From contig JAKSRW010000012.1 of NCBI GenBank assembly GCA_024403355.1, forward strand, positions 16,797 through 80,796: a stretch of DNA of 64,000 nucleotides, written 5' to 3'. Below, piece after piece: positions 2,436 through 39,134 of the stretch. Positions within the stretch are counted from its first letter, which is position 1. Each line of letters starts with the position of its first letter. The stretch comes from Lachnospiraceae bacterium. GTDB lineage: Bacteria; Bacillota; Clostridia; Lachnospirales; Lachnospiraceae. A program made the translations under genes and the position numbers. The notes beneath the pieces were generated by a model. The model did not search any database, was not told the origin of the DNA, and saw nothing but the letters and a program-made list of their open reading frames with translations.

Positions 2436-3518
2436 TTAAGCGTTCTTTGCTTCGTAATCCTTTAAGAAATCAACAAGTGCCTGAACACCCTCGATAGGCA
2501 TTGAATTGTAGATTGATGCACGAAGACCACCAACGCTTCTGTGACCCTTAAGGTTATCGAAGCCTGCTGCCTTTGTAGCTGCAACAACTGCTGCATCCTT
2601 ATCTGCATCGCCTGTAACGAAGGGAACATTCATAAGTGAACGGTACTCCTTCTCTACTGTTCCCTTGAAAAGCTTGCTGCTGTCAAGGTAATCATAGAGG
2701 ATAGCTGCCTTCTTCTTGTTAAGCTCGTTCATCGCCTCAAGTCCGCCAAGGCTCTTTAAATACTTGAATACCTTACCGCATACATAAATGCCCCAGCAGT
2801 TAGGTGTATTGTACATTGAGCCGTTGCCTGCATGAATATCAAATCTGCAGTAGGTGGGAACTGATGTGGGAAGATCCTCGCGGATAAGGTCCTCACGGAT
2901 GATAACAATTGCGAGACCTGCAGGTCCGATGTTCTTCTGAACACCGCCGTAGATTAAGCCGTAATCAGATACGTTGCAGGGCTTGCTTAAGAACATTGAT
3001 GACTGGTCTGATACAAGAATCTTGCCCTTTGTATTGGGAAGTGTCTGGTATGTTGTACCATGAATTGTCTCGTTCTCACAAATATATACATAATCTGCAT
3101 CATCATCGATGGGAAGATCTGAAAGATCGGGAATATAGCTGTAATTCTTGTCCTCGCTGCTTGCGATTACATTAACCTTACCGAACTTCTTAGCCTCTGA
3201 AGCAGCCTTCTTTGACCATGCACCTGTTACAATATAATCAGCTACACCGTTCTTCATAAGGTTCATGGGAATCATAGCAAACTCAAGTGTTGCACCGCCC
3301 TGAACGAAGAGAACCTTGTAATTGTCGGGAATACCCATTAAATCACGTAAATCAGCCTCAGCCTCATCAATAATCTGCTGGAAAACCTTTGAACGATGTG
3401 ACATCTCCATAACGCTCATTCCGCAGCCACGGTAGTCAACAACTTCCTTTGCGATTTCCTCAAGTACGGGCAGGGGCATCATAGCGGGACCTGCTGAAAA
3501 GTTATAAATTCTAGCCAT
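2436..3518 (-). CDS. serC: phosphoserine aminotransferase
   Basis: 360 aa. The N-terminal MARIYNFSAGPAMMP… stretch is typical of SerC class-V aminotransferases. Lies upstream of serA on the same strand. Confidence 0.88.
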   Translation of the reverse strand: MARIYNFSAGPAMMPLPVLEEIAKEVVDYRGCGMSVMEMSHRSKVFQQIIDEAEADLRDLMGIPDNYKVLFVQGGATLEFAMIPMNLMKNGVADYIVTGAWSKKAASEAKKFGKVNVIASSEDKNYSYIPDLSDLPIDDDADYVYICENETIHGTTYQTLPNTKGKILVSDQSSMFLSKPCNVSDYGLIYGGVQKNIGPAGLAIVIIREDLIREDLPTSVPTYCRFDIHAGNGSMYNTPNCWGIYVCGKVFKYLKSLGGLEAMNELNKKKAAILYDYLDSSKLFKGTVEKEYRSLMNVPFVTGDADKDAAVVAATKAAGFDNLKGHRSVGGLRASIYNSMPIEGVQALVDFLKDYEAKNA

Positions 3519-3640: not shown

Positions 3641-3882
3641 ATTTACGAAATAAAAAAGCCCATGCAAACCAAACGGTTCACATGGGACGATAATTCAAAT
3701 CGTGGTGCCACCCAAATTCGTCATGCACTGCATGACCTCATAGCTCGATATAAAGGTCGAACCCTTCGACTCCTCGCCGACAGCTCCGAAAGTGGACGGT
3801 ATCAATTCCCCTACTGCCTCACACCTGCCGGCAGCTCTCTGAAAAGGTACTAATGAAACTTATTTTTCATCATTGCTGAACA
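3641..3882 (-). promoter_or_regulatory. T-box riboswitch leader of the serC-serA operon (probably Ser-specific)
   Basis: The minus strand contains AAUUUGGGUGGCACCACG, matching 15 of 18 positions of the T-box consensus AAUUAGGGUGGUACCGCG. It is followed by the terminator CCCAUG-N16-CAUGGG plus a U6 run. An AGAGAG / AGUA-containing stem I region lies upstream. Confidence 0.62.
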
Positions 3883-4846: not shown

Positions 4847-6178
4847 TTATATAAACACTACCATATAGTGCGGCAAAGTCTCTTTAACACCAGCTTTCCC
4901 ATTTCTGTTGGCAATAAGTTTATATGCCGACGAAGGGCTAAAATCACTGATAAAGGAATTTAAAGATACCGAAGCAGTATTACCTGCTTTTACCTCTAAC
5001 GGCACAACAGAACCGTCCTTTTCCAGCAAAAATTCCAGTTCATGATTATCGTCCGGCTTATAATAATAGAGCTTATACCCACGTTTAACCAAGGATTCCG
5101 CAATAACATTCTCATATAAGCCACCCCTGGCATTTCCTTTGATAGTGTTATTAAGTATAGCCCTTTTGGTTTCGAATCCATAAAGGCAAGTTAACAAGCC
5201 CGTATCATTGATATACAATTTAAACTGATCCTCTTTCGCATTAGCCATAAGTGGAATAAACGGTTCAGATATATTATAACAGGGATTTACCATACCTGAA
5301 TCTATAAGCCATTGAACACTTCCGCCATACTTTCGACGTGTCTGTCCCTTTTCGACAGTAGAATACTGAAACTTCTTTAATTCCTTTGCCAATTGCTTCG
5401 GAACCGCGTCATAACACATCCGAACATATTGTTTTTCCCTGCCCTTTGCATGTTTGGAAATATCGTCCTGATATTCATTAATGATACTGTTCTGAATATC
5501 AAATACCCTATTAAAATCCTTATATTGCACAAAATCTTTTACTACTTCTGGCATTCCGCCAACCACCATGAATTCCCTGAAAAGCGACTCGTATTTATTA
5601 TGTACAGACTCATGAATCTGCTCATCCGCCCCCAGGTACCTTTTCAGTTCTAAAACAGAATCCTTTGAATAACCATTAGCCCATAAAAACTCTTCAAAAT
5701 CCAACGAGCACATTGTTAGCGTACTCTCATATCCGACCGGAATAGATTCAACTTCATCAACTTCCTTATCTGCGTCCATACCATATGCTAAGCCCAATAA
5801 GGAACCTGATGAAATAACATCAAAACGAAAATCTTCCGCAAGAAACTTTATAGCTGTACGGGCATTCCCGCAACGCTGTATTTCATCAAGAAAAATAAGA
5901 GTGTTCCCCGGAACCAGTCTAATCCCCGGTATATTGGCAGTGATTCTCTTATAAACAGCATCAGAAGTGATTTCGCCATCGAAAATAGCTTTTAATTCCG
6001 GATGTTCATAAAAATTAATCTCTATAAAAGAATCATATTCGTTTTCACCAAATCTTTTTATTATATATGATTTTCCTACCTGCCTTGCACCCTTAACTAT
6101 CAAACATTTACTCAGTTTCTCTTCTTTCCGTTTACGCTTCCACTCTATAAGCTCTGAATATATCTTTCTTTCAAGCAT
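4847..6178 (-). CDS. AAA+ ATPase of the DUF4143 / AAA_14 family
   Basis: Walker A motif GARQVGKS; Walker B motif LIFLDEIQ. The start is moved to MLERK (RBS AGGGGTG) because the first 17 codons of the tracked ORF lie inside a direct-repeat array. Confidence 0.7.
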   Translation of the reverse strand: MLERKIYSELIEWKRKRKEEKLSKCLIVKGARQVGKSYIIKRFGENEYDSFIEINFYEHPELKAIFDGEITSDAVYKRITANIPGIRLVPGNTLIFLDEIQRCGNARTAIKFLAEDFRFDVISSGSLLGLAYGMDADKEVDEVESIPVGYESTLTMCSLDFEEFLWANGYSKDSVLELKRYLGADEQIHESVHNKYESLFREFMVVGGMPEVVKDFVQYKDFNRVFDIQNSIINEYQDDISKHAKGREKQYVRMCYDAVPKQLAKELKKFQYSTVEKGQTRRKYGGSVQWLIDSGMVNPCYNISEPFIPLMANAKEDQFKLYINDTGLLTCLYGFETKRAILNNTIKGNARGGLYENVIAESLVKRGYKLYYYKPDDNHELEFLLEKDGSVVPLEVKAGNTASVSLNSFISDFSPSSAYKLIANRNGKAGVKETLPHYMVVFI

Positions 6179-6191
6179 TCCGACACCCCTA

Positions 6192-6310
6192 TGCATAAAA
6201 TCGTAATATGATTTTACACTAAAATGCACAAAATCGCAACATCAGTTTTTTTGATTTTTACATAAAATCGTAACATCATTTCTCCATTTTTTGCATAAAA
6301 TCGTAACATT
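6192..6310. repeat. Four direct 18-nt repeats (GCATAAAATCGTAACATN) spaced 33-34 bp apart, iteron- or operator-like
   Basis: Copies at 6192, 6226, 6260 and 6293, in the promoter region of the ATPase gene. Confidence 0.6.
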
Positions 6311-7399: not shown

Positions 7400-7584
7400 A
7401 GAAATCCTTTCTTATACTCAATATGCAAGCGCATAATCAACCAATCAAACACTTCTTACAAAAATGTAAGAACTTTGTAAGCAGAATCGATGGAGAATCC
7501 TCCCCGCCCCTGTTATTATTAATACATCAAATGAAAACCACTGATAAAAACAGCGAACAATAAATTCACAAAGAGGTATCCACC

Positions 7585-7791
7585 ATGAAAAATTTCATCA
7601 ACAAAATCTCAGGCAAGAAGGCACTCGTAATCGTAACAGTCCTCGCATGCATCTGCGAAGTACTCGAAATCATCACAGCCATCCGTCTCGGAAACAAAAT
7701 CAATTTCACCGCCATGTGCGTAATCTTCTCAGCCATCACAATATGGGCATGCGCAGTAGAGAAGAAGGAAAAGGAAGCTGGGGAGAGGTGA
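7585..7791 (+). CDS. small membrane protein (68 aa)
   Basis: Two predicted TM helices. RBS AGAGG upstream. Confidence 0.35.
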   Translation: MKNFINKISGKKALVIVTVLACICEVLEIITAIRLGNKINFTAMCVIFSAITIWACAVEKKEKEAGER

Positions 7792-7910
7792 GAGGGCACT
7801 CAGTATAGTAATTCAATGTAGTGCCCATAGGCCCTCCATTTCTCCAAAGTCTATTCGTAGATATTATAATTCATATTGCATTTACACAAATATGGTGTTA
7901 TTATTAATAT

Positions 7911-8006
7911 ATAAAAGGTGCTGCCGATAGACGGCTAGCCCTCGTGTTGATTCAAAACGACTTCCGTTCTTAATCTTGCTAGGGATCTAACGGCGGTCGT
8001 TTTTTG
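7911..8006 (+). ncRNA. antisense sRNA (putative type I antitoxin), copy 2
   Basis: Promoter TTGCAT-17-TATTAT at 7876-7904. Same terminator as copy 1; about 95% identical to it. Confidence 0.5.
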
Positions 8007-8151
8007 TATGTTTATGTGATTTATGTTTTTTATGTGTATCGTCGTCATTTCTGCGAATAAATCCTTCGATTTTTTCCACAAATCTTCCGACAGATACACC
8101 GACTATAAGTACTGATATTATAAGACCTAATATCGATAAATAATCATTCAT
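7987..8151 (-). CDS. 54-aa type I toxin-like membrane peptide, copy 2
   Basis: Identical peptide to copy 1. Promoter TTGATT-17-TATAAT at 8259-8287 on the minus strand. Confidence 0.5.
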   Translation of the reverse strand: MNDYLSILGLIISVLIVGVSVGRFVEKIEGFIRRNDDDTHKKHKSHKHTKNDRR

Positions 8152-8535
8152 ATTCACACCCCCCTTCTAACTCGGAGGGCTCAACAACAATCCCTCCTTA
8201 AACAGAGGGCCAGCCGCCTACCGTTATGGCAACACCTTATCTCTTACGAGACACTATTATTATATCACAAACCGAGCAAATAATCAAGAACACTTGTTCG
8301 GCATTTTATGACCAAATTGTTTACATTGTAAAAAGCATTTCATTCTTTAACTCTGATATCTTGCTCTCACCATTTCTATAATCGATATCAATCCCCGGTT
8401 GTACATTATATACATATACGCCAAAACGAATCCCTGCTCCATTATCTTCGACAGAATATGCCTCAATAAAAACACCACTTGCTACTAAATTACTACTTTC
8501 AAATATCGGAGTTTGGTTCCATAAAGTTCTCCAGT

Positions 8536-9993
8536 CTAATACTCTATAAATTTTAAATTACCCATTCCAAGAATTATTTTTTTTCCATCTAAAACAATAA
8601 TTTTAATCCCTTTTATTACTGCAGGTGATGATGCAATATTCCCCGATACCTTTAAAGCATTAATCATATTGCCAAACTCATTGTTCAAATGCCCTAAAAT
8701 GTTTCCATCCCTCTCTAGAATCATATAACCATTCTTTTCTTCTACAATAGAAACATAATATTCTCCATCTTTTATCACATCAAAATCAGCAATATCATTT
8801 TCATCTACGACCACGTGTGTAACACCATAAAGATTTCGGCAGCACCATCTTGACTTATTATCATACTTATACTCGTAATATTCTCTGTCAGGAATACTTA
8901 ATTCATACACTTCATCCATATTTGACAATAGTTTCCAAATTTGTAGATTATCTTTTTTACTTCCCCCTTTTAACACATTACTTGTAAGTACAATCTTTGC
9001 ATTTGTACTTGCAAATTTGTAATCATCCAAAACAACAATATTTACCCTATCATCATTCGAAAAGCCATGCTTTATTTCGCTCAAAAGCAACATACTTGAT
9101 ACATATGCTTTTTCAGCTAAATTATCTACCAATATTACATTTTTATCCGCAGAGAAATATTTTTCCTCCAGTTCTGTAAATTTATAGCAATTCCGTATGC
9201 GATTCCGTACACGTTCCTCATATAAATTCTTGTTTATGTCGTCAGTCTCCGTATTATTACCGGGAGTTTCTATGTTTTTTACAGCATGTCGAGATTCTTT
9301 TTTTTCTATCTTTTTTGTTTTTTTTCTTGCAATAGTTTTTCTATCAGCTACTTCATCAACATATCCCCAAATAGGCACCAATTCTTCATTTTGATAATCA
9401 TTGTTATCTGTAATTCTCCATTTATGACCGATAACAACCATTCTCCGTCCGTTTAACGGATTAATCATATAAGTATTGGTATCCTCTTTTGCATTATAAT
9501 CAGGTATTACCGGATTAGTATTGATTGGAAATTCTAATCCATCGTTCAATGGATTACATTCATACCTCATCATCTCCTCTTCCGATATCATATCGACTTT
9601 ATAATACAACGATAGCTTGCTTGGATTACCATATAGCAATCGCTCTTCGTCAGTCATACTCCACTCTTTAGCCATTTCATCTGAATAATCGGGATTACAC
9701 TCTAAAATATGACTACATTCTCTGTTAATACATGCACATACGACCTTATTCTTTTCTTTAGAATAACCAAAGCAAGGATCATTCTGGGCATAAATGCACC
9801 TACATTCTGTCTTTCTTATTCCATGTTGAACCTTTGATAAATTAGCAACTCTAAAGTCAACTTCTCTTCTTTTATATATAGCCCGAATGCACTTATACTC
9901 TACAACTTGGTCCACAAATGTTTGATCAAACATTGGATCTTCTTCTCTACTAAAGAACACATTGCTTCCAACAACAATATTGCTTTCAAACAT
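8536..9993 (-). CDS. hypothetical 485-aa protein; Cys-rich N-terminal region, no recognised domain
   Basis: RBS GAGGTGG. Third gene of a translationally coupled operon with an Hsp70-like ATPase. Contains a CRCIYAQNDPCFG…CACINRECSH cluster. Confidence 0.6.
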   Translation of the reverse strand: MFESNIVVGSNVFFSREEDPMFDQTFVDQVVEYKCIRAIYKRREVDFRVANLSKVQHGIRKTECRCIYAQNDPCFGYSKEKNKVVCACINRECSHILECNPDYSDEMAKEWSMTDEERLLYGNPSKLSLYYKVDMISEEEMMRYECNPLNDGLEFPINTNPVIPDYNAKEDTNTYMINPLNGRRMVVIGHKWRITDNNDYQNEELVPIWGYVDEVADRKTIARKKTKKIEKKESRHAVKNIETPGNNTETDDINKNLYEERVRNRIRNCYKFTELEEKYFSADKNVILVDNLAEKAYVSSMLLLSEIKHGFSNDDRVNIVVLDDYKFASTNAKIVLTSNVLKGGSKKDNLQIWKLLSNMDEVYELSIPDREYYEYKYDNKSRWCCRNLYGVTHVVVDENDIADFDVIKDGEYYVSIVEEKNGYMILERDGNILGHLNNEFGNMINALKVSGNIASSPAVIKGIKIIVLDGKKIILGMGNLKFIEY

Positions 9994-10004
9994 GAAACCA
10001 CCTC

Positions 10005-11477
10005 TTAATCAATCTCAGCATTCTTTTTAGGCGCTGGTGCGTCTAACTCATATGAAACTTTTAAATTTGAATATGTCCAAACTCTAAATACATCATCAGG
10101 CATACGATTAGAATGAATCTTTATCCTAAATACCATATCTGCATCTATATAACAGGATATCTGTAAATACTCATCACTGAACCCTCTTAATTTAACAGGA
10201 AAATATTCAACAAAAGACTTGTCCCCATCATCCTCACCATCAGAAAATACAAAACGTGCTTCCTTTGTTGCTTCAACAACACCAAATTTGATACACTTTT
10301 CTTCTGTCGGAACTCTTTGTCCTACTTTTAATAACGGATAAAATTTATTATTTGATTGAATAATTCCAATAGGTTTATTCAATGTATAACATCCTGGTCT
10401 ATAGGATATTTCAGCAGCTCCAGATCCTATATCCCACATCGCCGTACGCGGAAATAATAGTTTTTCTCTGTCAAAATATTCTAATAATTTAGACTGCAAT
10501 GGTCTAAGGCGGCTTGAACCGCCTTCGCAAATAATGCAATCTATGGACTCTCTATTCATTCCAGCTTCAGATAATGCTTTTAACAAGCAATCTATTGCCT
10601 GATCCACTTCATTCTCTATAATTTCATAGAAATAATCATAATCAATCTTTTCTAATGCTCTTCCAAATTTATCAAGCTTAGCTATTGAAATAGTTGCTAT
10701 ATCTTCGTCAGAAAGATTACACTTTGCTTGTTCACAAAGATTCAATAATCTAAGCTTAAATTCCGGGGCAAGATCATCATATGTAAAATTTTGATTTGTT
10801 TTTCTAGCCACTCTAGTACAGACTTTTTCTGCAATAATTCTATCAATATCGTTTCCTGCTAATGGCATACCCACTGTGGCAAGCTCATTAATGATATTGT
10901 TCTCGATTCGTAATACTACAACATCAAGAGTACCGCCACCCCAATCAAACACGGCTACGTTCTTATACTTTTTCATTTCGTTCAAACGACTACAGTATGC
11001 AGAAGTCGGCTCACTGATGAACATCTTAATCTTTATGCCAGCTTCTTTTGCAGCTCTACGAACACTATTCTTTTTCTTAGGAGAAAATCCTACTGGCACA
11101 GCAACTACAGCCTGGTCTAATTCCATCCCCCCCGCAGTCTTATCTTTAACATTTACCTTCAACGCTTTGAATAATTCAGTTGCTATATCTATCGGTGTCC
11201 ATTTTCTTCCAGCAATCTCCCATTCCTTATCTTCATCTATAACACTCTTAATAGATGAGAATACTCGGTAATCAGCAGAATCGGCAATTGTGTTTTTTGC
11301 ATCTAATCCAGTTTTAACCTCACCTGTTTTTTTGTTAATTGCCACAAAAGAAGGTAGTGGATTTCTTTCATCCTCACCTATTTTCCTTGCTTCACCTACA
11401 CGTTCGCCATTAATATCAGCAATGGCTACCACTGCGCTATTAGTTGTTCCAAAGTCAATTCCAAAATAATTTGCCAT
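10005..11477 (-). CDS. Hsp70/DnaK-superfamily ATPase (actin-like NBD) with a truncated or divergent C-terminal region
   Basis: N-terminal GIDFGTTNSAVV phosphate-1 motif. DWGGGTLDV phosphate-2 motif. A CEGGSSRLRP adenosine motif. Only 490 aa with no canonical substrate-binding domain or lid. Confidence 0.75.
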   Translation of the reverse strand: MANYFGIDFGTTNSAVVAIADINGERVGEARKIGEDERNPLPSFVAINKKTGEVKTGLDAKNTIADSADYRVFSSIKSVIDEDKEWEIAGRKWTPIDIATELFKALKVNVKDKTAGGMELDQAVVAVPVGFSPKKKNSVRRAAKEAGIKIKMFISEPTSAYCSRLNEMKKYKNVAVFDWGGGTLDVVVLRIENNIINELATVGMPLAGNDIDRIIAEKVCTRVARKTNQNFTYDDLAPEFKLRLLNLCEQAKCNLSDEDIATISIAKLDKFGRALEKIDYDYFYEIIENEVDQAIDCLLKALSEAGMNRESIDCIICEGGSSRLRPLQSKLLEYFDREKLLFPRTAMWDIGSGAAEISYRPGCYTLNKPIGIIQSNNKFYPLLKVGQRVPTEEKCIKFGVVEATKEARFVFSDGEDDGDKSFVEYFPVKLRGFSDEYLQISCYIDADMVFRIKIHSNRMPDDVFRVWTYSNLKVSYELDAPAPKKNAEID

Positions 11478-12574
11478 TATTCTACCTTAATTCCTTTTTT
11501 ATCTAATATCTTAAATATATTTTCTATTTTTACCCTGTATATCTCTCCTAATTGGATATCCATGTCATCTGCTTCCGATGCCTTAAAATCTCTATATTCA
11601 GCTTTTAATTCGTTAGCGATATCCTTTAAAAGAGCTCCCTCATCATTTTTCTTTAATGCATCAAAAGCGTCATTTATGGCCTTGCGCTCTTCAATTTCCT
11701 TTCCTGCTTCAACAAGACTCTTCTGTTGCTCTTGCATATTTCCATTCAATTCGCAAATTTGTCTTTCTAAATCATTCTTTTGTCTATTCAATTCTTCAAT
11801 TTGTAAATTGAGTTCAACTATATCTTTTTGGAGTTTATCCTCTCTGTAGACACCGTCTCTAAATTGCTTTTCGACTTTTGTATAATGTTCAAGAATAGAT
11901 TTTATATCATCTATCTTGCTCTTAGGTATTTGTTCTTCAATTCTCTCTCTTTCTATTGCATCTGCTGCTATTTTTTTCCCCTTATTCAACCACTTATTTA
12001 AATCATAATAATCTTTCAATGTGTCATTTTTATTAATAATATCTATGGCTATTTCAATAAAACTATTCACTATTTGGGGTGCAATTTTTAAATCTTCCCA
12101 TTCAGGAAACTTGTTATACTGTTTTTGCAATTCACTAAAACAATAATCTACTAATATAGGCCCATATACACTAGCAATTATAGGCTTTTTATCATCATTA
12201 ATTAAATTAATAAACGACCTAAAAACTCCTGGACAAATGACAATAACATTCTCATTTTTAATAAGCGTCATATATATCATTCCAACCAGTAATTTGACAG
12301 ACGCATTTTTTTTATTATCCTTAAACACAGTGTTTTTCTTTATTTTTTTCCAGCAATCCTGTATATCAGATTTTTGAGCTGACTCAAAATAATCAAAAAG
12401 CGCAGATGCCCTATCAATATCAATTCCATTAATTATAACTGATATAATTTCATCTGTTGTCTTTTCGTCATTTAAATACTTCTCTAATAATTCTGAATAC
12501 CTACGTGCAAGACTATAATCATCAAGATGATCTAAACATTCTTTCTGTAATTCTCTTATTTCATTTATTGACAT
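11477..12574 (-). CDS. hypothetical protein with a long C-terminal coiled coil (GrpE-like architecture?)
   Basis: 365 aa. Its stop overlaps the start of the Hsp70-like gene. Heptad-rich region between aa 200 and 330. Confidence 0.55.
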   Translation of the reverse strand: MSINEIRELQKECLDHLDDYSLARRYSELLEKYLNDEKTTDEIISVIINGIDIDRASALFDYFESAQKSDIQDCWKKIKKNTVFKDNKKNASVKLLVGMIYMTLIKNENVIVICPGVFRSFINLINDDKKPIIASVYGPILVDYCFSELQKQYNKFPEWEDLKIAPQIVNSFIEIAIDIINKNDTLKDYYDLNKWLNKGKKIAADAIERERIEEQIPKSKIDDIKSILEHYTKVEKQFRDGVYREDKLQKDIVELNLQIEELNRQKNDLERQICELNGNMQEQQKSLVEAGKEIEERKAINDAFDALKKNDEGALLKDIANELKAEYRDFKASEADDMDIQLGEIYRVKIENIFKILDKKGIKVE

Positions 12575-12810
12575 CTTACCAGTTCTCCTTTACAGTCATA
12601 AAAACATATCATTTTCAAAGTAACACATATTGCAAAAAACTATTATAATAATACCATAATTATATGATTTTTACAACTAAACAGACAAAAAACAGCCCAA
12701 ACAAAAACAAATCACATATATGCTCCTAACCAATTCAATATAAGAATTTTGTTCATTTCGTTGAATTGTTCTAACAATGCAACCATTTCCACTCAACGTC
12801 AAAAGCCTGC

Positions 12811-12968: not shown

Positions 12969-13412
12969 TCAGTAATTCTCCTCCCAGTAGTCATACGCAT
13001 CGTCCCAGTTGTCAAAATCATCCTCCCAGTCGTCGGCGAAATCATCGGCGTTGCTGTATTTATGTACATCGTAAATGTCACTGTAGTACACATGATAGTT
13101 TTTATCATTTGTGGAAGATGTATTTGTGTTCTTTTTCTTACCGTTTTTTTCCCATTCTTTTAGCTTTTGCATTCGCTCATAGCTTTCTTGACGTTTTTCT
13201 TCATCTTTCTTTATATGGTAATCACAGAATATTTCCTTCTCATCGCGGTAATTATCGCAGCCATCCTTAAGGCACTTTTTCGGAAGGTCCGAGAAAAACA
13301 TATGCCAAATATAAAACAGAATGGCTGCCAGAATCAGCCAGTCCGAAAGATCAAGCTTAGTTCCATTTTCCATGATTATGCTCTCCTCTTGCTGTAATAA
13401 ACCTCGTACCAA
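12969..13412 (-). CDS. single-TM protein with a C-x2-C…C-x2-H motif and a conserved aromatic-acidic C-terminal tail
   Basis: TM helix LILAAILFYIWHMFF. Tail IYDVHKYSNADDFADDWEDDFDNWDDAYDYWEENY. Paralogous to the 13585-14523 and 15889-16818 genes. Confidence 0.6.
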   Translation of the reverse strand: MVRGLLQQEESIIMENGTKLDLSDWLILAAILFYIWHMFFSDLPKKCLKDGCDNYRDEKEIFCDYHIKKDEEKRQESYERMQKLKEWEKNGKKKNTNTSSTNDKNYHVYYSDIYDVHKYSNADDFADDWEDDFDNWDDAYDYWEENY

Positions 13413-13588
13413 CGCGCCGTGCGTACGTAGGGCTTAGTCGGTGCATGCTCTGCGCAGCGCACCTCCTTCTGGAAGAAGGCGCAGGTCATATAACCCTCAC
13501 AATGCTCCCTGTCTGCCAGAAGCTTAGTGCATCGATTGATATCCGCATCCAAAGTGCAGATGTACTCTTCAGAATCTCCCATACTCAA
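13376..13588 (-). CDS. small Cys/His-rich protein (70 aa)
   Basis: Overlaps both neighbours (ATGA coupling at 13585-13588). Motifs CTKLLADREHCEGY and CAEH resemble the C-x2-H-x-C units of the upstream gene. Confidence 0.45.
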   Translation of the reverse strand: MSMGDSEEYICTLDADINRCTKLLADREHCEGYMTCAFFQKEVRCAEHAPTKPYVRTARWYEVYYSKRRA

Positions 13589-14523
13589 TAGTTATCCTCC
13601 CAGTAATCAAAGGCCTCATCCCAGTCATCAAAATCATCGCCCCACTCATCTGCGAAATCATCAGCATCGTAATAATTGTGTACATCATATGGATCCGAAG
13701 CCCCTGTCACTTGGCCCGAGCTGCTGCCGCTACTGCCTGTCGAAGACGAATATGTCGTATTCTTATAAGAATATGGCTTACTTTTATAAACGGTCGGTCT
13801 CTTCCAAGGATTATCACGGTAGTCGCTTATATGGAAAACCACACCCTCTACAACATTCACTGCAAATATTATGTCCCTGTCCTTGTAATAGTAATATATG
13901 TCAGAACTCTTATACCCTTTGCCTGTACCTATATGATTCCCTCCGTAGAAATACGCCGTGCCCAGGCCGGTACTTGAAAGATATCTCTCCGACATACCCA
14001 CATACGGCAATTCAACAGATTCTCCCTCGCATTTGTGGGTATAGCAATAATTGCTTGAACCGATTTTAACATTTTTACAGTTCGTGAAAACGCAGGTATG
14101 GTCCACACAATACTCGCCCCCTTGAATTTCCAATTTATCACAATCATATTCCGAACATTGTTTCTCTGCCTCAGCACGCCTAGCACTTATTTGTTTTTGA
14201 ACTCCATGATGATATTCACACAATTGAAAATACTCATCGTAAACTTCGTCACGGCAAGCAAACGCACCACAAGTATGAGCAAAACAATACTTTCTATTTG
14301 TCAGCTGCATTTTCATGCATAACTTTCCCCCGGAATATTTACATCTTAAGCCAAAAAAATATACAAGAAATCCCACTACAATAGCAACACCTATTACCAC
14401 AAGTATAACGATAGTCTTTTTGGCATTCTTTTTATTAAATTTTATATTGTCTACAGCTATCCAGATACCAAAGGACAAAGCCATAACACTCAGTATAATT
14501 ATATATATTTTTGTTTCCAACAT
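13585..14523 (-). CDS. two-TM protein with repeated C-x2-H-x-C-x4-5-C-x10-11-C-x2-H units and the conserved aromatic-acidic C-terminal tail
   Basis: Motifs YCFAHTC…CEYHH and YCVDHTC…YCYTHKC. Tail DPYDVHNYYDADDFADEWGDDFDDWDEAFDYWEDNY. Confidence 0.65.
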   Translation of the reverse strand: MLETKIYIIILSVMALSFGIWIAVDNIKFNKKNAKKTIVILVVIGVAIVVGFLVYFFGLRCKYSGGKLCMKMQLTNRKYCFAHTCGAFACRDEVYDEYFQLCEYHHGVQKQISARRAEAEKQCSEYDCDKLEIQGGEYCVDHTCVFTNCKNVKIGSSNYCYTHKCEGESVELPYVGMSERYLSSTGLGTAYFYGGNHIGTGKGYKSSDIYYYYKDRDIIFAVNVVEGVVFHISDYRDNPWKRPTVYKSKPYSYKNTTYSSSTGSSGSSSGQVTGASDPYDVHNYYDADDFADEWGDDFDDWDEAFDYWEDNY

Positions 14524-15888: not shown

Positions 15889-16818
15889 TCAATAATTATC
15901 CTCCCAGTAGTCAAAGGCATCATCCCAGCTGTCGAAATCGTCCTCCCATTCATCCGCGAAATCATCAGCACTGTAATAATTATGGACATCGTAAGGGTCC
16001 GCATAGAATGAATAACCCGAATAGCTATTTTTTTGTCCACCGGAGCTTCCGGATGAATTATTCTTATGCTTGTTATTATCTTCATCCAGCTTATATCTGT
16101 AGTCATTCGTAGAATAAACATAACCATACTTTGCATCCGCATGAAAAATCTGTTTTCCATCAACCACCCAGTCATAGGCCATATGCCTCCCGCCCCCTAT
16201 AATATCCATTTCTATCTTGGATTTGCTCGGTACTCCCAGTGAGCAAACATCAAAATATATCGTTTTCATACCAGCTCTGGGTAACTCGCCCGCATAGTGT
16301 TTTTCCTCACTGTAGAACCTGATATTCTCCGGATTCTTTTGTTTTAAAGCAATGACATGCGATTTAACTTCATAAAAAAAGTCCTGATACTTTCCTGAGT
16401 ATTCCCAGTTAAAATAGTGATCCACTATCTCAAATATGTCCCTGTAATTAACATTCTCTACAACTGTCTCGGAATATATAGAATCTAAAACTTTACTGTT
16501 ATCCTCCAAAAAGATATCCAACCAATAAAGGGCTTCGGCATCTTTATTCCCATATTTAGCCATTGTATCTAATTCTATTCTTTTATCGCACTCAAGATAT
16601 TCCCCTTTCTTAAGTGTATTATATGCTTCCTCGAGCTTATAATCGTCAGTGTTTATCCGGTAATAACGAACAGTTAATGCAATAATAACTATCAATACAA
16701 CCGCAGCAACCGCGATATAACACCTTATAATCTTACGCTTAGAAGCTGTTGTGCGTCCCTCTAAATTAAGCATTCCAAGCGAAATTACACCTATTATTCC
16801 CATTATTATTCCCGCCAT
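15889..16818 (-). CDS. two-TM membrane protein with the conserved aromatic-acidic C-terminal tail; third paralog
   Basis: Tail DPYDVHNYYSADDFADEWEDDFDSWDDAFDYWEDNY. The middle domain differs from the other two paralogs. Confidence 0.65.
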   Translation of the reverse strand: MAGIIMGIIGVISLGMLNLEGRTTASKRKIIRCYIAVAAVVLIVIIALTVRYYRINTDDYKLEEAYNTLKKGEYLECDKRIELDTMAKYGNKDAEALYWLDIFLEDNSKVLDSIYSETVVENVNYRDIFEIVDHYFNWEYSGKYQDFFYEVKSHVIALKQKNPENIRFYSEEKHYAGELPRAGMKTIYFDVCSLGVPSKSKIEMDIIGGGRHMAYDWVVDGKQIFHADAKYGYVYSTNDYRYKLDEDNNKHKNNSSGSSGGQKNSYSGYSFYADPYDVHNYYSADDFADEWEDDFDSWDDAFDYWEDNY

Positions 16819-32702: not shown

Positions 32703-35700
32703 ATGAGTTTAGAAAATGTACATTATGATGCTTTTATAAGCTACAGACATTCAGAGCATGATATGTTTGTCGCAACAAATCTGCAGAAGAAGCTGGAGGC
32801 CTTCAAGCTTCCCAAGCCCCTGGCGGCAAATGCAAACGGCAAGACACGTATCGAGCGTGTATTCCGTGACCAGGACGAGCTTCCTCTGGCAAGCAATCTG
32901 AGCGACCCTATCGAGGAGGCACTTAAGAATTCCGACTTTCTTATCGTAATCTGCAGTCCCCGTCTTCCCGAGTCTATGTGGTGTAAAAAGGAAATTGAGA
33001 CCTTCGCAGCCCTCCACGGCCGTGACCGCATTCTTGCGGTACTCTGCGAGGGCGAGCCTGCCGAGTCATTTCCTCCCTTCCTGCAGAGTGAAACCGTGGA
33101 AACGGTGAACGAACAGGGCGAGAAAATCCTCGTTACACGTGCCATAGAGCCTCTTGCGGCAGAAGCAAGAGCAAAAACCCAGAAGGAAACCAAAAAGCTT
33201 CTGGATGATGCGGTGCTTCGTATCGCGGCTCCCATTTTCAATCTCAATTATGATGACCTCAAGCAGCGCCATAAGGAGCAGCGTTTTAAAAAGCTCGCGG
33301 CCATCTGGGGCTCCATCAGTGCGGCTGTGCTTATTTTCGCGCTTGTATGTATCATTATGCTTTTCAGAATAAGCGCACAGAACAAAACCATCGAGCAGCG
33401 TAACGCCGAAATTGAGACTCAGAATGCAGAGATTACAAAACAAAATGAAGAAATAACACTGAAGAGTCAGGAAATCCTTAAGCAGAACGAGGAAATATCC
33501 AATAAAAACAATGAGATTTCCAAGCAGAATGATGAGATTACCAGACAGCGTGACGAAATAGCCGCACAGTATATCGCAGCGGCAAAAAACTATGCGGTTT
33601 CAATGGTTTCTGTTTCGGACAGACTTATTTCCGGCGGCCGCAGAATTGATGCAATTGCCGCACTCAGAAATGCAATGCCGGCAAGCATCGACGGGGACGA
33701 GCTTCCCTACAGTGCCGAGGCCCACAGCGCATTGGCAAATCTTACAGAGGCCTACAATGACGGCAGCACATTCATTCCCTCACGCGTAATAGAGACACCT
33801 TTTACAATTTCAAGCTATTCCGTAAGCCCTTCGGGAAAAACCGTTGCCATCTATGATATCGAATTCGGCGTTCAGGTTTTCGACACCACCACAGGCAGGC
33901 TTATTTATGAGAACACCAATGCCAGCGGCGACTACAGCTATTCGGCAACTCTTGTAAATGACAAGAGTCTGATTTTAGACAATAACGGACTTTGCAAAAC
34001 AGACCTCGAAACAGGCGAAGAAAGCAGTTATACAGACAACTATGACTGCTTCAGTTCAATCTTTTCGGTATGGGATTGTATAAGCATGCCTAATTGCGGA
34101 CGCTACATCATTACAGACAATAAAAACATCCTTGTTTTTGATGCTGCAGACGATTCTCTTAAGGCTCAGTTAAATCTTAACGCCGACTTTGAAAACAGTA
34201 CAAGATCTCTTAATTCTGTGGGAATCACAGATGACGGAAAATACCTTTATGCACTGGTTCTGACCAATTATTCGGACAGTCAGGAGCTTTCAATCTATGA
34301 CCTGACAGACGGAAGTCTCTGCAACAGCACACCTCTCGACATTCCGCTTTCAGCTTCAATTGCCAGTGACGGCAAGAGAGTTTTTGTATCCTACCCTTAT
34401 ACCGATCCCAATGTAAAGTATCTTTTCTCGGATGCAAAAATCGAAGCCTACAGTATAAAAACCGGTAAGCTTCTTTGGGAAAACACCTATAAGCAGTATG
34501 GAATTGATTATATAGGTGAAATAACCTACTGCTCTGACGGTGATTATCTGCTCGGCTGCAGTTCTTCAAATTTCGAGTCGATTGACGTCAAAACAGGTGA
34601 AATAATAGAGCATATCAGCCTTGATTCAATGAAAATGAACTACAGTATCCGCAATAACGGACGACTGGTTCTCATTTTCTGCAACGATGAATCAGTATTG
34701 TTATGGTCTCCTCTGACCAACAGATATTATGAGTATACGGACACACTTTATAAGTTTGCGCCCAAAGAAACTATGCTCAGCTGCGGAATGTATGGTTCCA
34801 CAATTATTGTCTGCCCGTCAAACGAGAACTATCTTGCTATCTACGAGCAGTCAAAGGTTGAGCAATTTCCTCTTCTGGGCAATGCACGCAGCTCCGACAG
34901 GCTTTCTGCAAACGGCAAATACGCCGTGCATCAGGCCGGTGACGGTTACTCGGTTTATTCTACGGAAAACGGTCAGGATTTATTTGCAATAGGTGAAACC
35001 GGATACCTGGCACATTTTACGGATGACGGTAAATATCTTGTGAATACAGAAGATGATGTTGTAAATATTTTTGATATCGCAGAGGCTAAGCTTTCACACA
35101 GCATATATCTTCCCGACCTCACAAGCATTAATGCCGAAACCTGCATGTCACCTACCGGCAAATATGTTGAAATAACAGAGCGCGGAAGCGACTATTCAAT
35201 TATCGGAAAAGATATTTTCTTAACAGAAAGCGGTGATTTTGTTACATCAGCCCCCGCAAACAGGGATACAATTCTTACCTTTGCGGATGGCCGCGATATT
35301 TACGCAAGCACCTATTCAGCAGCCGCCAACAGCAATACTTCTTCTGTTAAGCTTTATAATTTCGGTGCTGACGAGCCCTACGCAGAGAAGGAGCTTGATA
35401 TCAGATTCCTTTCCGATATGTTTTTCACCGATGATGCGAAATACCTCTTTGCAGAGTATAATAACAGTACAATTGAGATATATGACACAGATTCGCTTCA
35501 GCTTGTAAATACCCATTATGGTATTTCAAAGAAGCCTATGTCCGCACACTATATCAAAGAACATGATATATACGGCTTATTCTTCGGCGATGAAATGTAT
35601 CTTCTCAACAGCAGCATGGAAGTAATTTCCAAAATCACCGGTGCACACAAATATGATGCGGAGCATGATGCCTTCGTTATCTTCGTTGATGACGAAATCA

Positions 35701-35807
35701 GCTATGCACCTTATATGAGCTATGAGGATATTATTGCCAAAGCGGATGCAATTCTTGACGGATATGAAATCCCTGCCCGCATCAAGGCTGAAAACGGTAT
35801 AAAATAA
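32703..35807 (+). CDS. TIR-domain protein with a TM helix, a heptad coiled coil and a large C-terminal beta-propeller (WD40/PQQ-like)
   Basis: N-terminal TIR (YDAFISYRHSEHD…FRDQDELPLASN…WCKKEIE). TM AAIWGSISAAVLIFALVCIIMLF. Repeats QNAEITKQNEEIT…QNDEIT. About eight xS/TxDGKY beta-strand repeat signatures. Confidence 0.75.
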   Translation: MSLENVHYDAFISYRHSEHDMFVATNLQKKLEAFKLPKPLAANANGKTRIERVFRDQDELPLASNLSDPIEEALKNSDFLIVICSPRLPESMWCKKEIETFAALHGRDRILAVLCEGEPAESFPPFLQSETVETVNEQGEKILVTRAIEPLAAEARAKTQKETKKLLDDAVLRIAAPIFNLNYDDLKQRHKEQRFKKLAAIWGSISAAVLIFALVCIIMLFRISAQNKTIEQRNAEIETQNAEITKQNEEITLKSQEILKQNEEISNKNNEISKQNDEITRQRDEIAAQYIAAAKNYAVSMVSVSDRLISGGRRIDAIAALRNAMPASIDGDELPYSAEAHSALANLTEAYNDGSTFIPSRVIETPFTISSYSVSPSGKTVAIYDIEFGVQVFDTTTGRLIYENTNASGDYSYSATLVNDKSLILDNNGLCKTDLETGEESSYTDNYDCFSSIFSVWDCISMPNCGRYIITDNKNILVFDAADDSLKAQLNLNADFENSTRSLNSVGITDDGKYLYALVLTNYSDSQELSIYDLTDGSLCNSTPLDIPLSASIASDGKRVFVSYPYTDPNVKYLFSDAKIEAYSIKTGKLLWENTYKQYGIDYIGEITYCSDGDYLLGCSSSNFESIDVKTGEIIEHISLDSMKMNYSIRNNGRLVLIFCNDESVLLWSPLTNRYYEYTDTLYKFAPKETMLSCGMYGSTIIVCPSNENYLAIYEQSKVEQFPLLGNARSSDRLSANGKYAVHQAGDGYSVYSTENGQDLFAIGETGYLAHFTDDGKYLVNTEDDVVNIFDIAEAKLSHSIYLPDLTSINAETCMSPTGKYVEITERGSDYSIIGKDIFLTESGDFVTSAPANRDTILTFADGRDIYASTYSAAANSNTSSVKLYNFGADEPYAEKELDIRFLSDMFFTDDAKYLFAEYNNSTIEIYDTDSLQLVNTHYGISKKPMSAHYIKEHDIYGLFFGDEMYLLNSSMEVISKITGAHKYDAEHDAFVIFVDDEISYAPYMSYEDIIAKADAILDGYEIPARIKAENGIK

Positions 35808-37157: not shown

Positions 37158-39134
37158 ATGATAATTCAGATTGATATTAATTTTTCACCTAATTTCATAT
37201 TGAAGCATCAGTTCGACCGGGTGCTTCCCGTAGACCTGGCAGTAGCCTCATTAAAGGCTCTGAAGCTCGAGCAGTTTGAAGCCCTCTCAAGCGACCTCAC
37301 AAAGGCCAGCTGCAGGGCTAATTACAAAAGCTGCAGTGAGCTTCTGTCTCTTGTGATTCCGGCTCTTTCAAATACCTCCAGACTCAGTTCTGAGGACTTT
37401 ATAATCGAGGACAACGGGAATTTTATAAAGGCCTTCGCCCCCGAATGTCTGACAATCACACTTAATGAACCTGCATCAAATAATCCCGCATCAAAGCAGT
37501 CAATGCATGATATCAATAACAAGGTGGGCTGGGATGATTTCAAGGAGCTCTGTGCCGAAATTATGACCGTGGCTCCCCAGATTAAGCGAAACGGTACCTT
37601 TAAAAGCTTCATGTTCCAGAATTACCTTATCTCGGTAAATGAGGGCTACGGTCTTTCTACCGCTCTGGACGAATTCGCGGATCTGATTGAAAAGCTCGAG
37701 CTCTTTCAGTTTCTTGGTGACCAGCATGTACTCGAGGTTCACCTTACGACAAAATCCGGCGGAAGCGATACAATGACCCTCGACGAGGCCAGCGATGCCC
37801 TCTACAATACAGACGGCCGCGGCAAGCTTATCTGCTTCGATATTAGTGAATTTATCGAAAAATCAAAGCATACCGAGTTCAAACAGTTTATCCAGAAAAT
37901 GGTGGACCTTCAGGAATATTATCTCTTTGTATTCCGCGTGCCCTTCCTCGAACCGGATGCATTAAAAACCATTCAGAGACTGCTGGCAGACGTGCTTTAT
38001 ACCCGTGTCATCACGGTTCAGCCCTTCAACAATGAGCAGCTGAAGGAATGCGCAATCCGCGCACTTTCGGAGTTTGGCTACGCAGCCGATGAACAGGTCT
38101 GGGATGTATTCTTCTCGCGTCTGAGTGAGGAAAAGAGTGACGGCCGCTTCTACGGAATCCAGTCCGTCCGCAAGGTAATTTACGAAATGCTCTGGCTTAA
38201 GGCCAAGGCAGCCGCAGCCAATCCGGATGTTGACGAAAAGCTCATACACCGTGAGGAAATACTTGAGCTTTCAGCCAGCTACCTTAAGAAGGCAAAGGAC
38301 GGCTTTGATTCACTTGCAGAGATGGTCGGCATGGAAAAAATTGCCGAACGCATACGTGAAATTGTGGCTCAGGTTCGCCTCGCCATTGAAAATAAAACCA
38401 TGGAGCGTCCCTGTCTGCACATGCGCTTCGTAGGTGCTCCCGGTACAGGAAAAACCACCGTTGCCCGAATACTCGGTCAGATTTTCCGCGAGAACGGAAT
38501 CCTTCGAAACGGATATTTCTTCGAATTTTCAGCCCGGGACCTGTGCGGCGAATATGTAGGTCAGACAGCACCAAAGACCTCCGCAATCTGCCGTGACGCA
38601 TACGGCTCGGTACTCTTTATAGATGAGGCCTACGCCCTTTATCAGGGTGACGACCGAGGCAATGACTACGGCCGCGAGGCCCTTACTACCCTTGTTTCAG
38701 AAATGGAGAATCACCGAGATGATATGGTGGTGGTAATGGCCGGCTATAAGGATGATATGAACAAGCTGATGGAGGGAAATGCGGGACTTCGAAGCAGAAT
38801 GCCCTTCCTTCTGGAATTTGAGAGCTATTCAAAGGCACAGCTTTTAGAGATTTTTATGTCCTTTGTAAGCAGGCATTTCAAATACGAGGAGGACTTCACA
38901 GAGGCCGCCCGTCAGTATTTTGATTCACTCTCGGACGATTACATGAAATCCGCAGAATTTGCAAATGCCCGTTTTGCCCGAAATCTTTATGAGCGCTGCT
39001 GGTCAAAGGCCGCAATGCGTACCTCTCTTTCGGGAGTAAAGGATATCATACTGAACCGTGAGGACTTTACAGCCGCCTCAAGCGAAAAGGAATTTTCGGA
39101 AAAGCTCGCTATTCACAGTAAAATCGGATTCTGA
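37158..39134 (+). CDS. SpoVK/CbbX-type AAA+ ATPase with a ~400-aa N-terminal domain of unknown function
   Basis: Walker A GAPGTGKTT, Walker B LFIDEAY, and an AGYKDDMNKLMEGNAGLRSR region characteristic of the SpoVK/CbbX/EccA clade. Confidence 0.75.
   Translation: MIIQIDINFSPNFILKHQFDRVLPVDLAVASLKALKLEQFEALSSDLTKASCRANYKSCSELLSLVIPALSNTSRLSSEDFIIEDNGNFIKAFAPECLTITLNEPASNNPASKQSMHDINNKVGWDDFKELCAEIMTVAPQIKRNGTFKSFMFQNYLISVNEGYGLSTALDEFADLIEKLELFQFLGDQHVLEVHLTTKSGGSDTMTLDEASDALYNTDGRGKLICFDISEFIEKSKHTEFKQFIQKMVDLQEYYLFVFRVPFLEPDALKTIQRLLADVLYTRVITVQPFNNEQLKECAIRALSEFGYAADEQVWDVFFSRLSEEKSDGRFYGIQSVRKVIYEMLWLKAKAAAANPDVDEKLIHREEILELSASYLKKAKDGFDSLAEMVGMEKIAERIREIVAQVRLAIENKTMERPCLHMRFVGAPGTGKTTVARILGQIFRENGILRNGYFFEFSARDLCGEYVGQTAPKTSAICRDAYGSVLFIDEAYALYQGDDRGNDYGREALTTLVSEMENHRDDMVVVMAGYKDDMNKLMEGNAGLRSRMPFLLEFESYSKAQLLEIFMSFVSRHFKYEEDFTEAARQYFDSLSDDYMKSAEFANARFARNLYERCWSKAAMRTSLSGVKDIILNREDFTAASSEKEFSEKLAIHSKIGF

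Follow-up and report, generated by a model that had tools for sequence, protein, structure and literature searches.

Hsp70 is the archetypal protein-folding machine, and as a dedicated part of prokaryotic immunity it has so far only been predicted, in CoCoNuTs, in GTPase-centric conflict systems and in fusions to EACC1 proteases, mostly with degenerate ATPase sites. Here we describe a three-gene operon, A-B-C, in a 64-kb stretch of gut Lachnospiraceae DNA (hereafter the window), whose middle gene encodes an Hsp70 without the alpha-helical lid and whose relatives are found in or beside helicase-based defence loci. The nearest described analogue is CnuD of Type III CoCoNuTs, which carries an Hsp70-like nucleotide-binding domain (NBD) and substrate-binding domain (SBD), HEAT-like repeats and coiled coils and forms superoperons with BREX and other restriction systems (PMC11090510). 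The Walker A-like motifs of CnuD are degenerate and its predicted ligand is RNA, and the CoCoNuTs themselves are defined by an McrB-type NxD GTPase (CnuB) and an McrC DUF2357 protein (CnuC), usually accompanied by HEPN RNases (PMC11090510). In our operon the same parts are distributed over two proteins, with the NBD and SBD in B and the HEAT-like repeats and coiled coil in A. Unlike CnuD, with which it is compared by description only, B has catalytic residues that are all invariant, and its partner is either a cysteine-containing N-terminal module, which we call Cys-N, or a helicase. Neither AAA_5/McrB nor DUF2357 was found in A, B, C, the island neighbours or the related loci.

Lidless DnaK-like domains have also been described in EACC1-protease modules, where the gene context is antiviral and the domains were proposed to act as sensors rather than refolders (PMC12642450). 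These domains and B are alike in being Hsp70s without the C-terminal lid helices; however, the former are ~50% identical to DnaK and fused to a protease and a pore-forming effector (PMC12642450), whereas B is ~29% identical and stands alone as a protein, with the A scaffold and a Cys-N protein as its partners. In the GTPase-centric conflict systems (DO-GTPase/tubulin/HSP70, and GAP1-N2 with HSP70, GrpE and DnaJ-fused partners), HSP70 is predicted to be an NTP-dependent switch (PMC7159879). The operon differs from these in having no GTPase, tubulin, GrpE, DnaJ or effector-associated domains, and in having helicase-related partners. With the canonical DnaK-DnaJ-GrpE, HscA, HscC and YegD systems, B has in common the NBD fold, the catalytic residues and a beta-sandwich SBD, but it is lidless, has a short linker without VLLL, is encoded among accessory genes with no J-domain protein or GrpE, and scores 4-8x below the family cut-offs. 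DISARM comprises the DrmA helicase, the DUF1998 protein DrmB, the phospholipase D (PLD) protein DrmC, a methyltransferase and DrmD/DrmE, and we know of no description of it with an Hsp70. Relatives of our module lie directly upstream of DrmA-DrmB and some are fused to DrmB, whereas the window is without both; DISARM and BREX thus adjoin the relatives and not the window copy.

We consider the operon to be the minimal, short form of an undescribed defence-island module that acts against phages or other mobile DNA, and assign this reading a probability of roughly 0.5. Because its relatives occur within or next to defence loci of the BREX, DISARM and UvrD-helicase types, the module is probably a chaperone-driven anti-phage device. 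Its embedding in BREX, its adjacency to DrmA/DrmB and its adjacency or fusion to UvrD strongly suggest a conflict role, and the same neighbours and fusions lend support to an earlier note on this DNA, which had proposed the operon as a candidate conflict system. A slowly evolving, intact ATPase coupled to a fast-evolving scaffold and followed by a fixed downstream adaptor, with insertions into BREX and DISARM loci, forms a pattern like that of a defence module. We rate the module as a variant within an emerging class of Hsp70-containing conflict systems. New to this class are the conserved ATPase site, the fixed partners (a scaffold and Cys-N) and the modular attachment to DISARM core helicases, UvrD/AddA-like helicases and BREX, and the relatives bring to light a modular connection, not reported before, of helicase-based defence machinery to an Hsp70 whose catalytic site is intact. 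The view that the operon matches no known defence operon also held, as PADLOC 2.0 gave one weak match, of B to PDC-M61B (E 8e-5), and a variant cassette, A'-B'-C', described below, likewise gave no PADLOC system match for the module. Full-text literature, which leaves most subscription-journal papers outside, contained no description of the cassette and no link between Hsp70 and DrmA/DrmB.

The three open reading frames (ORFs) all lie on the minus strand, at the positions reported before. Gene A (11477-12574; 365 aa) encodes a candidate scaffold with HEAT-like repeats, a coiled coil and a conserved C-terminal segment, gene B (10005-11477; 490 aa) the lidless Hsp70, and gene C (8536-9993; 485 aa) a two-module protein that appears to be a motor-less relative of Cys-N UvrD-type helicases. 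A 1-nt overlap had been claimed on both sides of B. It is present at the A/B junction (TAATG, base 11477 being common to the A stop and the B start), but B and C are separated by an 11-nt spacer that carries a GAGGTGG ribosome-binding site, as read off the sequence at the junctions. Another ribosome-binding site, AAGGAG, is located 5' of gene A at 12590-12585, and further upstream, ~85 nt from the A start, lies a promoter-like TTGTCT-18-TATAAT (12659-12688, minus strand) whose position fits an operon promoter; it is a consensus match only, and since shuffled sequence is expected to yield as many such sites, it is indicative only. The nearest terminator-like hairpin 3' of C (8192-8209, minus strand) is tentative, such sites not being above shuffle expectation. 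Each ORF has full-length homologues (E from 1e-38 to 0) and the A-B-C order was found again on >20 independent contigs, so the ORFs are not due to chance. A, B and C form one operon, and all three are on record, as exact copies, from a Lachnospiraceae metagenome-assembled genome.

Among 185,579 species genomes the cassette was present at 4 loci, in Lachnospiraceae, Anaerovibrio and other Bacillota. Metagenomes were a second source of relatives: they were scanned with a profile of B, and the neighbouring genes were labelled by local hidden Markov models (HMMs). The A-B-C order was kept in every locus recovered via close relatives of B (B at least 67% identical). In matched loci B was 67-87% identical, compared to 29-57% for A and 30-56% for C, and B evolves two to three times slower than its two partners. 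No relatives of C were found in phage, plasmid or viral-contig sets.

The genomic contexts of these relatives carry the defence reading. In one group of loci (L005-L008) the cassette is embedded in BREX, flanked by PglZ and BrxL in the same orientation and with 23-55 nt between the genes, and the Hsp70 of the BREX-embedded cassette was seen on 141 contigs. Another cassette adjoins a degraded BREX locus, and another adjoins a SNF2/NOV_C helicase with DUF1156 methyltransferases. A recurrent long form has eight genes, in which A-B-C is followed by UvrD (~825 aa, AddA/RecB-like), X (~880 aa), a small ORF (~60 aa), UvrD2 (~615 aa, HelD-like) and Y (at least 440 aa), several of the junctions overlapping (L012 8001-17470; L024 8909-21485; L028 8885-21455; L017 4391-15252). 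An arrangement related to the long form is found in Anaerovibrio. The UvrD and the ~880-aa X might form an AddAB-like heterodimer; X (855-886 aa) shares no N-domain with C and has no NCBIfam family, no relative in the PDB and, for the copies in L012 and L017, no PADLOC family. In the closest relatives of the window copy (L001-L004; B 87% identical), a 181-aa N-terminal UvrD fragment is encoded directly after C. Helicase-less A-B-C cassettes with no BREX gene adjacent are found in the window, in L026/27 and in L030-32, in unrelated contexts.

The DISARM-type context is represented by a variant cassette in which a Cys-N helicase, P0246, is encoded after a 402-aa A' (hhalign 97.4%) and a 484-aa Hsp70, B' (46% identical to B), and is followed by DrmA and DrmB (PADLOC E 4e-231 and 1e-89). 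In this variant C' consists of Cys-N and a UvrD helicase, 773-910 aa in length. The order A'-Hsp70-(Cys-N + UvrD helicase)-DrmA-DrmB recurs on eight further metagenome contigs from diverse samples; the A'-Hsp70-C'-DrmA-DrmB loci are L034, L035, L038, L041, L043, L052, L053, L109, L019 and L020. By a simple motif check, neither a PLD motif (DrmC-like HxKx4D) nor a methyltransferase motif, (D/N/S)PP(Y/F/W), was present in flanking ORFs of at least 200 aa in the DrmAB-linked loci. The five-gene arrangement looks like an undescribed DrmAB-containing system. A ~1000-aa protein is sometimes encoded before the five genes, and a ~580-aa Walker-A protein sometimes after them.

Other metagenome loci show further combinations of the same parts. 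In some, the Hsp70 is followed by a standalone Cys-N protein of 183-217 aa, and some pairs of an A-like protein and Hsp70 are followed by DrmA-like giants of 1600-1750 aa. Fusions of Hsp70 to DrmB were also found, as single ORFs matching both the Hsp70 profile and DrmB (DUF1998), each then followed by a 1000-1170-aa protein (L048 7832-10765; L058 2365-5073; L056, L067, L068). Some relatives adjoin genes typical of Firmicutes conjugative elements, namely topoisomerase, LPD16, YodL/DUF4316, TTRAP and Maff2 (L003 13438-17473; L012 921-1130), which suggests carriage as cargo of integrative and conjugative elements.

The assignment of B to Hsp70 was supported by its match to PF00012 (E 1.2e-36, 126.6 bits, cut-off 20.6) and to DnaK in the PDB (E 8e-28). 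Against the DnaK/HscA models it scored 129-145 bits, compared to cut-offs of about 620-823, and it did not reach the cut-off of the DnaK equivalogs (NF001413, 136 bits, cut-off 648; TIGR02350, 129 bits, cut-off 823), of HscA (TIGR01991, 145 bits, cut-off 709) or of YegD (NF008673, 43 bits, cut-off 331). A profile of 22 family members aligned B 1-453 with E. coli DnaK 1-487 at 99.7% probability (hhalign), ~29% identical. Since the alignment extends to DnaK 487, B keeps both the NBD (residues 1-345; 10443-11477, minus strand) and, by hhalign to DnaK, the beta-sandwich SBD (SBD-beta, residues 346-455; 10113-10442, minus strand), and lacks only the alpha-helical lid. The catalytic set of the NBD is intact: D8, K77, E156, D178, T183 and D185, which align with DnaK D8, K70, E171, D194, T199 and D201, are invariant in the 22 family members, and the motifs GIDFGTTNS and DWGGGTLD are likewise invariant. 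Judging from these invariant residues, B is catalytically competent.

The interdomain linker of B is shortened and has no DnaK VLLL segment, and the lid (DnaK ~508-605) is absent, as B ends at residue 490, ~35 residues past the aligned SBD-beta. The earlier note had described a truncated Hsp70 without a normal substrate-binding domain, which is right for the missing lid and the non-canonical C-terminus but not for the substrate-binding domain, present as SBD-beta. An NBD-only reading of B was rejected by the profile alignment with DnaK. A single-sequence phmmer search with the C-terminal 140 residues of B gave no match, so that the SBD-beta goes undetected that way. The mean pairwise identity is 0.73 in the SBD-beta and 0.70 in the NBD; because it is as conserved as the NBD, the SBD-beta probably grips a constant partner and not diverse phage proteins. 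From this conservation we think that the constant partner would be the Cys-N protein or the conserved end of A. In agreement with the earlier note, no DnaJ is encoded, as neither A nor C has a DnaJ family match and the HPD tripeptide is absent from A, B and C; a GrpE partner is likewise missing.

B has seven family-invariant cysteines (C162, C220, C248, C253, C314, C317 and C442), which include a CEQAKC motif and a CIIC motif adjoining the GG adenosine-binding motif. Canonical DnaK has one cysteine only. The invariant cysteines of B could bind a metal in the NBD or serve there as a redox site.

Protein A has 43 homologues and belongs to no family of Pfam, NCBIfam, PADLOC or PHROGs. As modelled by AlphaFold (mean pLDDT 85), it is all-helical with no beta domain and consists of a fast-evolving helical-repeat, HEAT/ARM-like domain (residues 1-215; 11930-12574, minus strand), one continuous helix (residues 218-331; 11582-11923, minus strand) predicted as a coiled coil from the model and from PDB profile matches, and a short terminal helix after it. 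The long coiled coil reported before is thus seen in the model as a single helix of ~110 residues and in the profile matches to leucine zippers, the matches being to generic coiled coils only (GCN4, Lpp, keratin). The analogy that had been drawn between A and GrpE-type exchange factors did not hold, given that A has no GrpE match and that its model has HEAT-like repeats, is all-helical and is without a beta domain. A GrpE-like A was rejected as a candidate, with no GrpE match at E up to 1 and only generic coiled coils in the PDB profile search.

Conservation is uneven along A, with a mean pairwise identity of 0.37 in the N-domain, the most variable part, and 0.65 in the last 75 residues (30 homologues). 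The most conserved segment, residues 291-365 (11480-11704, minus strand; ERKAINDAF..LGEIYR..IFKIL.KKGI), is also the part that can be aligned (hhalign 97.4%) to A', the 402-aa protein of the variant linked to DrmAB, and is probably, from its conservation, the segment that contacts Hsp70. We regard A as a candidate dimerising scaffold, whose variable HEAT-like N-domain is a candidate specificity or sensor surface.

Protein C had been called Cys-rich, which is true of its N-terminus, where 8 of the 12 cysteines fall in residues 35-99, but not of the remainder. The Cys-N module (residues 1-212; 9358-9993, minus strand) has an invariant cluster of C66, C88, C93 and C99, plus C74 and C86, spanning 9697-9804. 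It is followed by a variable, Lys-rich and probably disordered linker (residues 213-264; 9202-9357, minus strand; pLDDT <50) with an RKKTKKIEKK core; the mean identity of the linker is 0.27, yet a K/R-rich core, KKAKRIEKK, recurs. The C-terminal domain (residues 265-485; 8539-9201, minus strand) contains RecA-like alpha/beta and beta-rich subdomains.

A search of 1.8 billion representative proteins with a profile of C linked both modules to helicases. Cys-N also heads UvrD-type helicases of ~770-910 aa that are encoded directly after Hsp70 (hhalign 98.9%), and in every relative it is encoded immediately after Hsp70, whether alone, fused to a UvrD-type SF1 helicase or beside DrmB. The C-terminal domain is likewise found at the end of a 1021-aa UvrD-like helicase (hhalign 98.9%) and behind Sel1 repeats in a protein that is followed by a UvrD helicase gene; the ORF upstream of this Sel1 protein in L022, tested as a possible Hsp70, is not one. 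In the Cys-N helicases, an HMM of the C-terminal domain gives a weak, collinear match to the final third. C itself has no Pfam (including UvrD and AAA_19), NCBIfam or PADLOC family, no meaningful PHROGs match and no Walker A motif. As it combines helicase-linked Cys-N and C-terminal domains without Walker A, C looks like a Cys-N helicase minus its motor. The Cys-N profile had no relative in the PDB or Pfam and the whole-C profile none in the PDB, and Foldseek against the PDB gave nothing significant, with HIRAN and a helicase C-terminal domain only as low-probability leads.

Based on these features, we infer a physical A-B-C complex, a trigger, an effector step and a defence phenotype. The A-B pair would act as a switch driven by ATP, using the conserved SBD-beta to hold the Cys-N protein or to remodel it. 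This grip would be altered when A senses a trigger or when the client load of B shifts during infection, and a DNA-directed effector would thereby be released or activated. In the relatives this effector could be the fused UvrD helicase with DrmA/DrmB, the separate UvrD/AddA-like helicases or the surrounding BREX machinery. Since the window has no helicase, C itself would have to act there, and might bind DNA or forks or recruit a host helicase. A bolder version, which we put forward tentatively and hold to be rather doubtful, is that the A-like protein, lidless Hsp70 and Cys-N form a widespread, unrecognised immune control module that plugs into DrmA/DrmB, UvrD/AddA-like helicases and BREX, with the Hsp70 cycle as the on/off switch, and that the helicase-less form is autonomous with C as its effector. 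Should the defence role be confirmed, the module would make it practicable to study how infection is sensed, or a helicase licensed, by a chaperone cycle. It would also establish a new system containing DrmAB, and might account for accessory genes within the BREX loci of abundant human-gut and rumen Firmicutes.

Several observations weigh against a defence module in the window. The defence role is guilt by association, and the associated genes are missing here: tblastn with the L019 DrmA/DrmB and the L005 BREX proteins found no DrmA, DrmB, PglZ, BrxL or PglX in the 64-kb window, there is no UvrD gene or UvrD remnant anywhere in it, and no nuclease, toxin or other recognisable effector was seen in the operon or the window. 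In addition, Cys-N is modelled by AlphaFold with low confidence, so that its putative metal binding is read just from the invariant cysteines. The 181-aa UvrD fragment after C in the closest relatives means that this lineage may descend from a decayed long form, and the operon could then be a decaying, non-functional remnant of the eight-gene form that has lost its helicase half. The window does not have even that fragment. In its place, ~1.1 kb downstream of C (7400-8535) contain no long ORF, just ORFs of 68-77 aa on both strands at 7566-7799, and as the truncated UvrD gene of the closest relatives occupies this position, the stretch may be the scar of a deletion or replacement. Decay is nevertheless improbable in our judgement, as none of the three proteins is shortened (coverage against their homologues is 100%) and all keep the invariant residues, translational coupling and the ribosome-binding sites are intact, and the short form recurs and is abundant elsewhere. 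We find it unlikely, though deserving of serious weight, that the cassette is instead an accessory regulator or sensor that modulates a partner (BREX, DrmAB or the UvrD/AddA-like helicases) and that alone does little or relies on an unlinked partner. Such a role would suit the tight placement between PglZ and BrxL on the same strand, the operons that the cassette leads and whose later genes are helicases, the Hsp70-DrmB fusions, and a C without motor or catalytic motif; it does not account for intact three-gene forms without an adjacent helicase or BREX in several unrelated contexts, and the three ORFs of the operon all retain the family-invariant residues.

Two further explanations place the operon outside defence. 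In one, which likens the operon to HscC or YegD and separates it from genetic conflict, it would be a specialised chaperone for housekeeping or stress that has co-chaperones of its own; this fits the intact ATPase site and conserved SBD-beta of B and an operon in which no effector is identifiable. However, the distribution is rare and patchy, the operon lies in a low-GC island, the neighbourhoods vary and consist mainly of genes for defence and mobile elements, the partners evolve fast, the YegD, HscA and DnaK scores fall far under the cut-offs and the operon has no J-domain or GrpE, all of which make such a chaperone very improbable. The earlier note had allowed for a ubiquitous HscC/YegD-like module or for partners with well-characterised homologues; we found instead a YegD score of 43 bits against 331 and four loci in 185,579 genomes, and A and C without characterised homologues. 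Least credible, and all but dismissed here, is the idea that the operon serves a mobile element as a segregation or cytoskeletal system of the actin-like ParM/MreB type, A being the coiled-coil adaptor. B does match MreB_Mbl (E 1e-7) and a PHROG 'partition protein' family (E 2e-9) weakly, but Hsp70 models fit far better (E 1e-36 to 1e-42), the SBD-beta is Hsp70-specific, and C has no plasmid, phage or viral-contig relatives; in bits, MreB_Mbl scored 31.7 and Hsp70 126.6, and ParM gave an E of 0.02.

The operon sits in a ~12-kb stretch of low GC content with housekeeping genes on either side. Its GC is 0.328, compared to 0.439 for the window outside the island, and this lower value confirms an accessory island, as the earlier note had claimed. 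A neighbouring 'toxin-antitoxin-like module' was not confirmed, the neighbours being an AAA_14/DUF4143 ATPase and a 385-aa protein without a family. Four contexts that otherwise differ (window 4847-6229, minus strand; L001 12028-13260; L012 1177-2388; L017 2404-4023) have a gene for an AAA_14/DUF4143 ATPase no more than a few kb from the cassette, perhaps as a linked component or as a sign of the same type of mobile island.

Just upstream of the operon, three paralogous proteins are encoded on the minus strand (12969-13412, 13585-14523 and 15889-16818). They have no Pfam family and have in common a very acidic, aromatic C-terminal tail (DPYDVHNYY.ADDFADEW.DDFD.WD.AFDYWEDNY), and some carry an N-terminal hydrophobic segment and Cys-rich repeats. 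Further conflict-type genes were found elsewhere in the window: one (32703-35807, plus strand) encodes a 1034-aa TIR and beta-propeller protein, with an AAA ATPase gene ~1.3 kb farther downstream (37158-39134, plus strand), and another (54387-56810, minus strand) encodes an 807-aa TPR-TIR-LRR (BspA-type) protein. Lastly, a T-box leader (3680-3882, minus strand; Rfam RF00230, 100.6 bits) precedes genes for a class-V aminotransferase (2436-3518) and a 2-hydroxyacid dehydrogenase (1238-2404), in keeping with ordinary amino-acid regulation.

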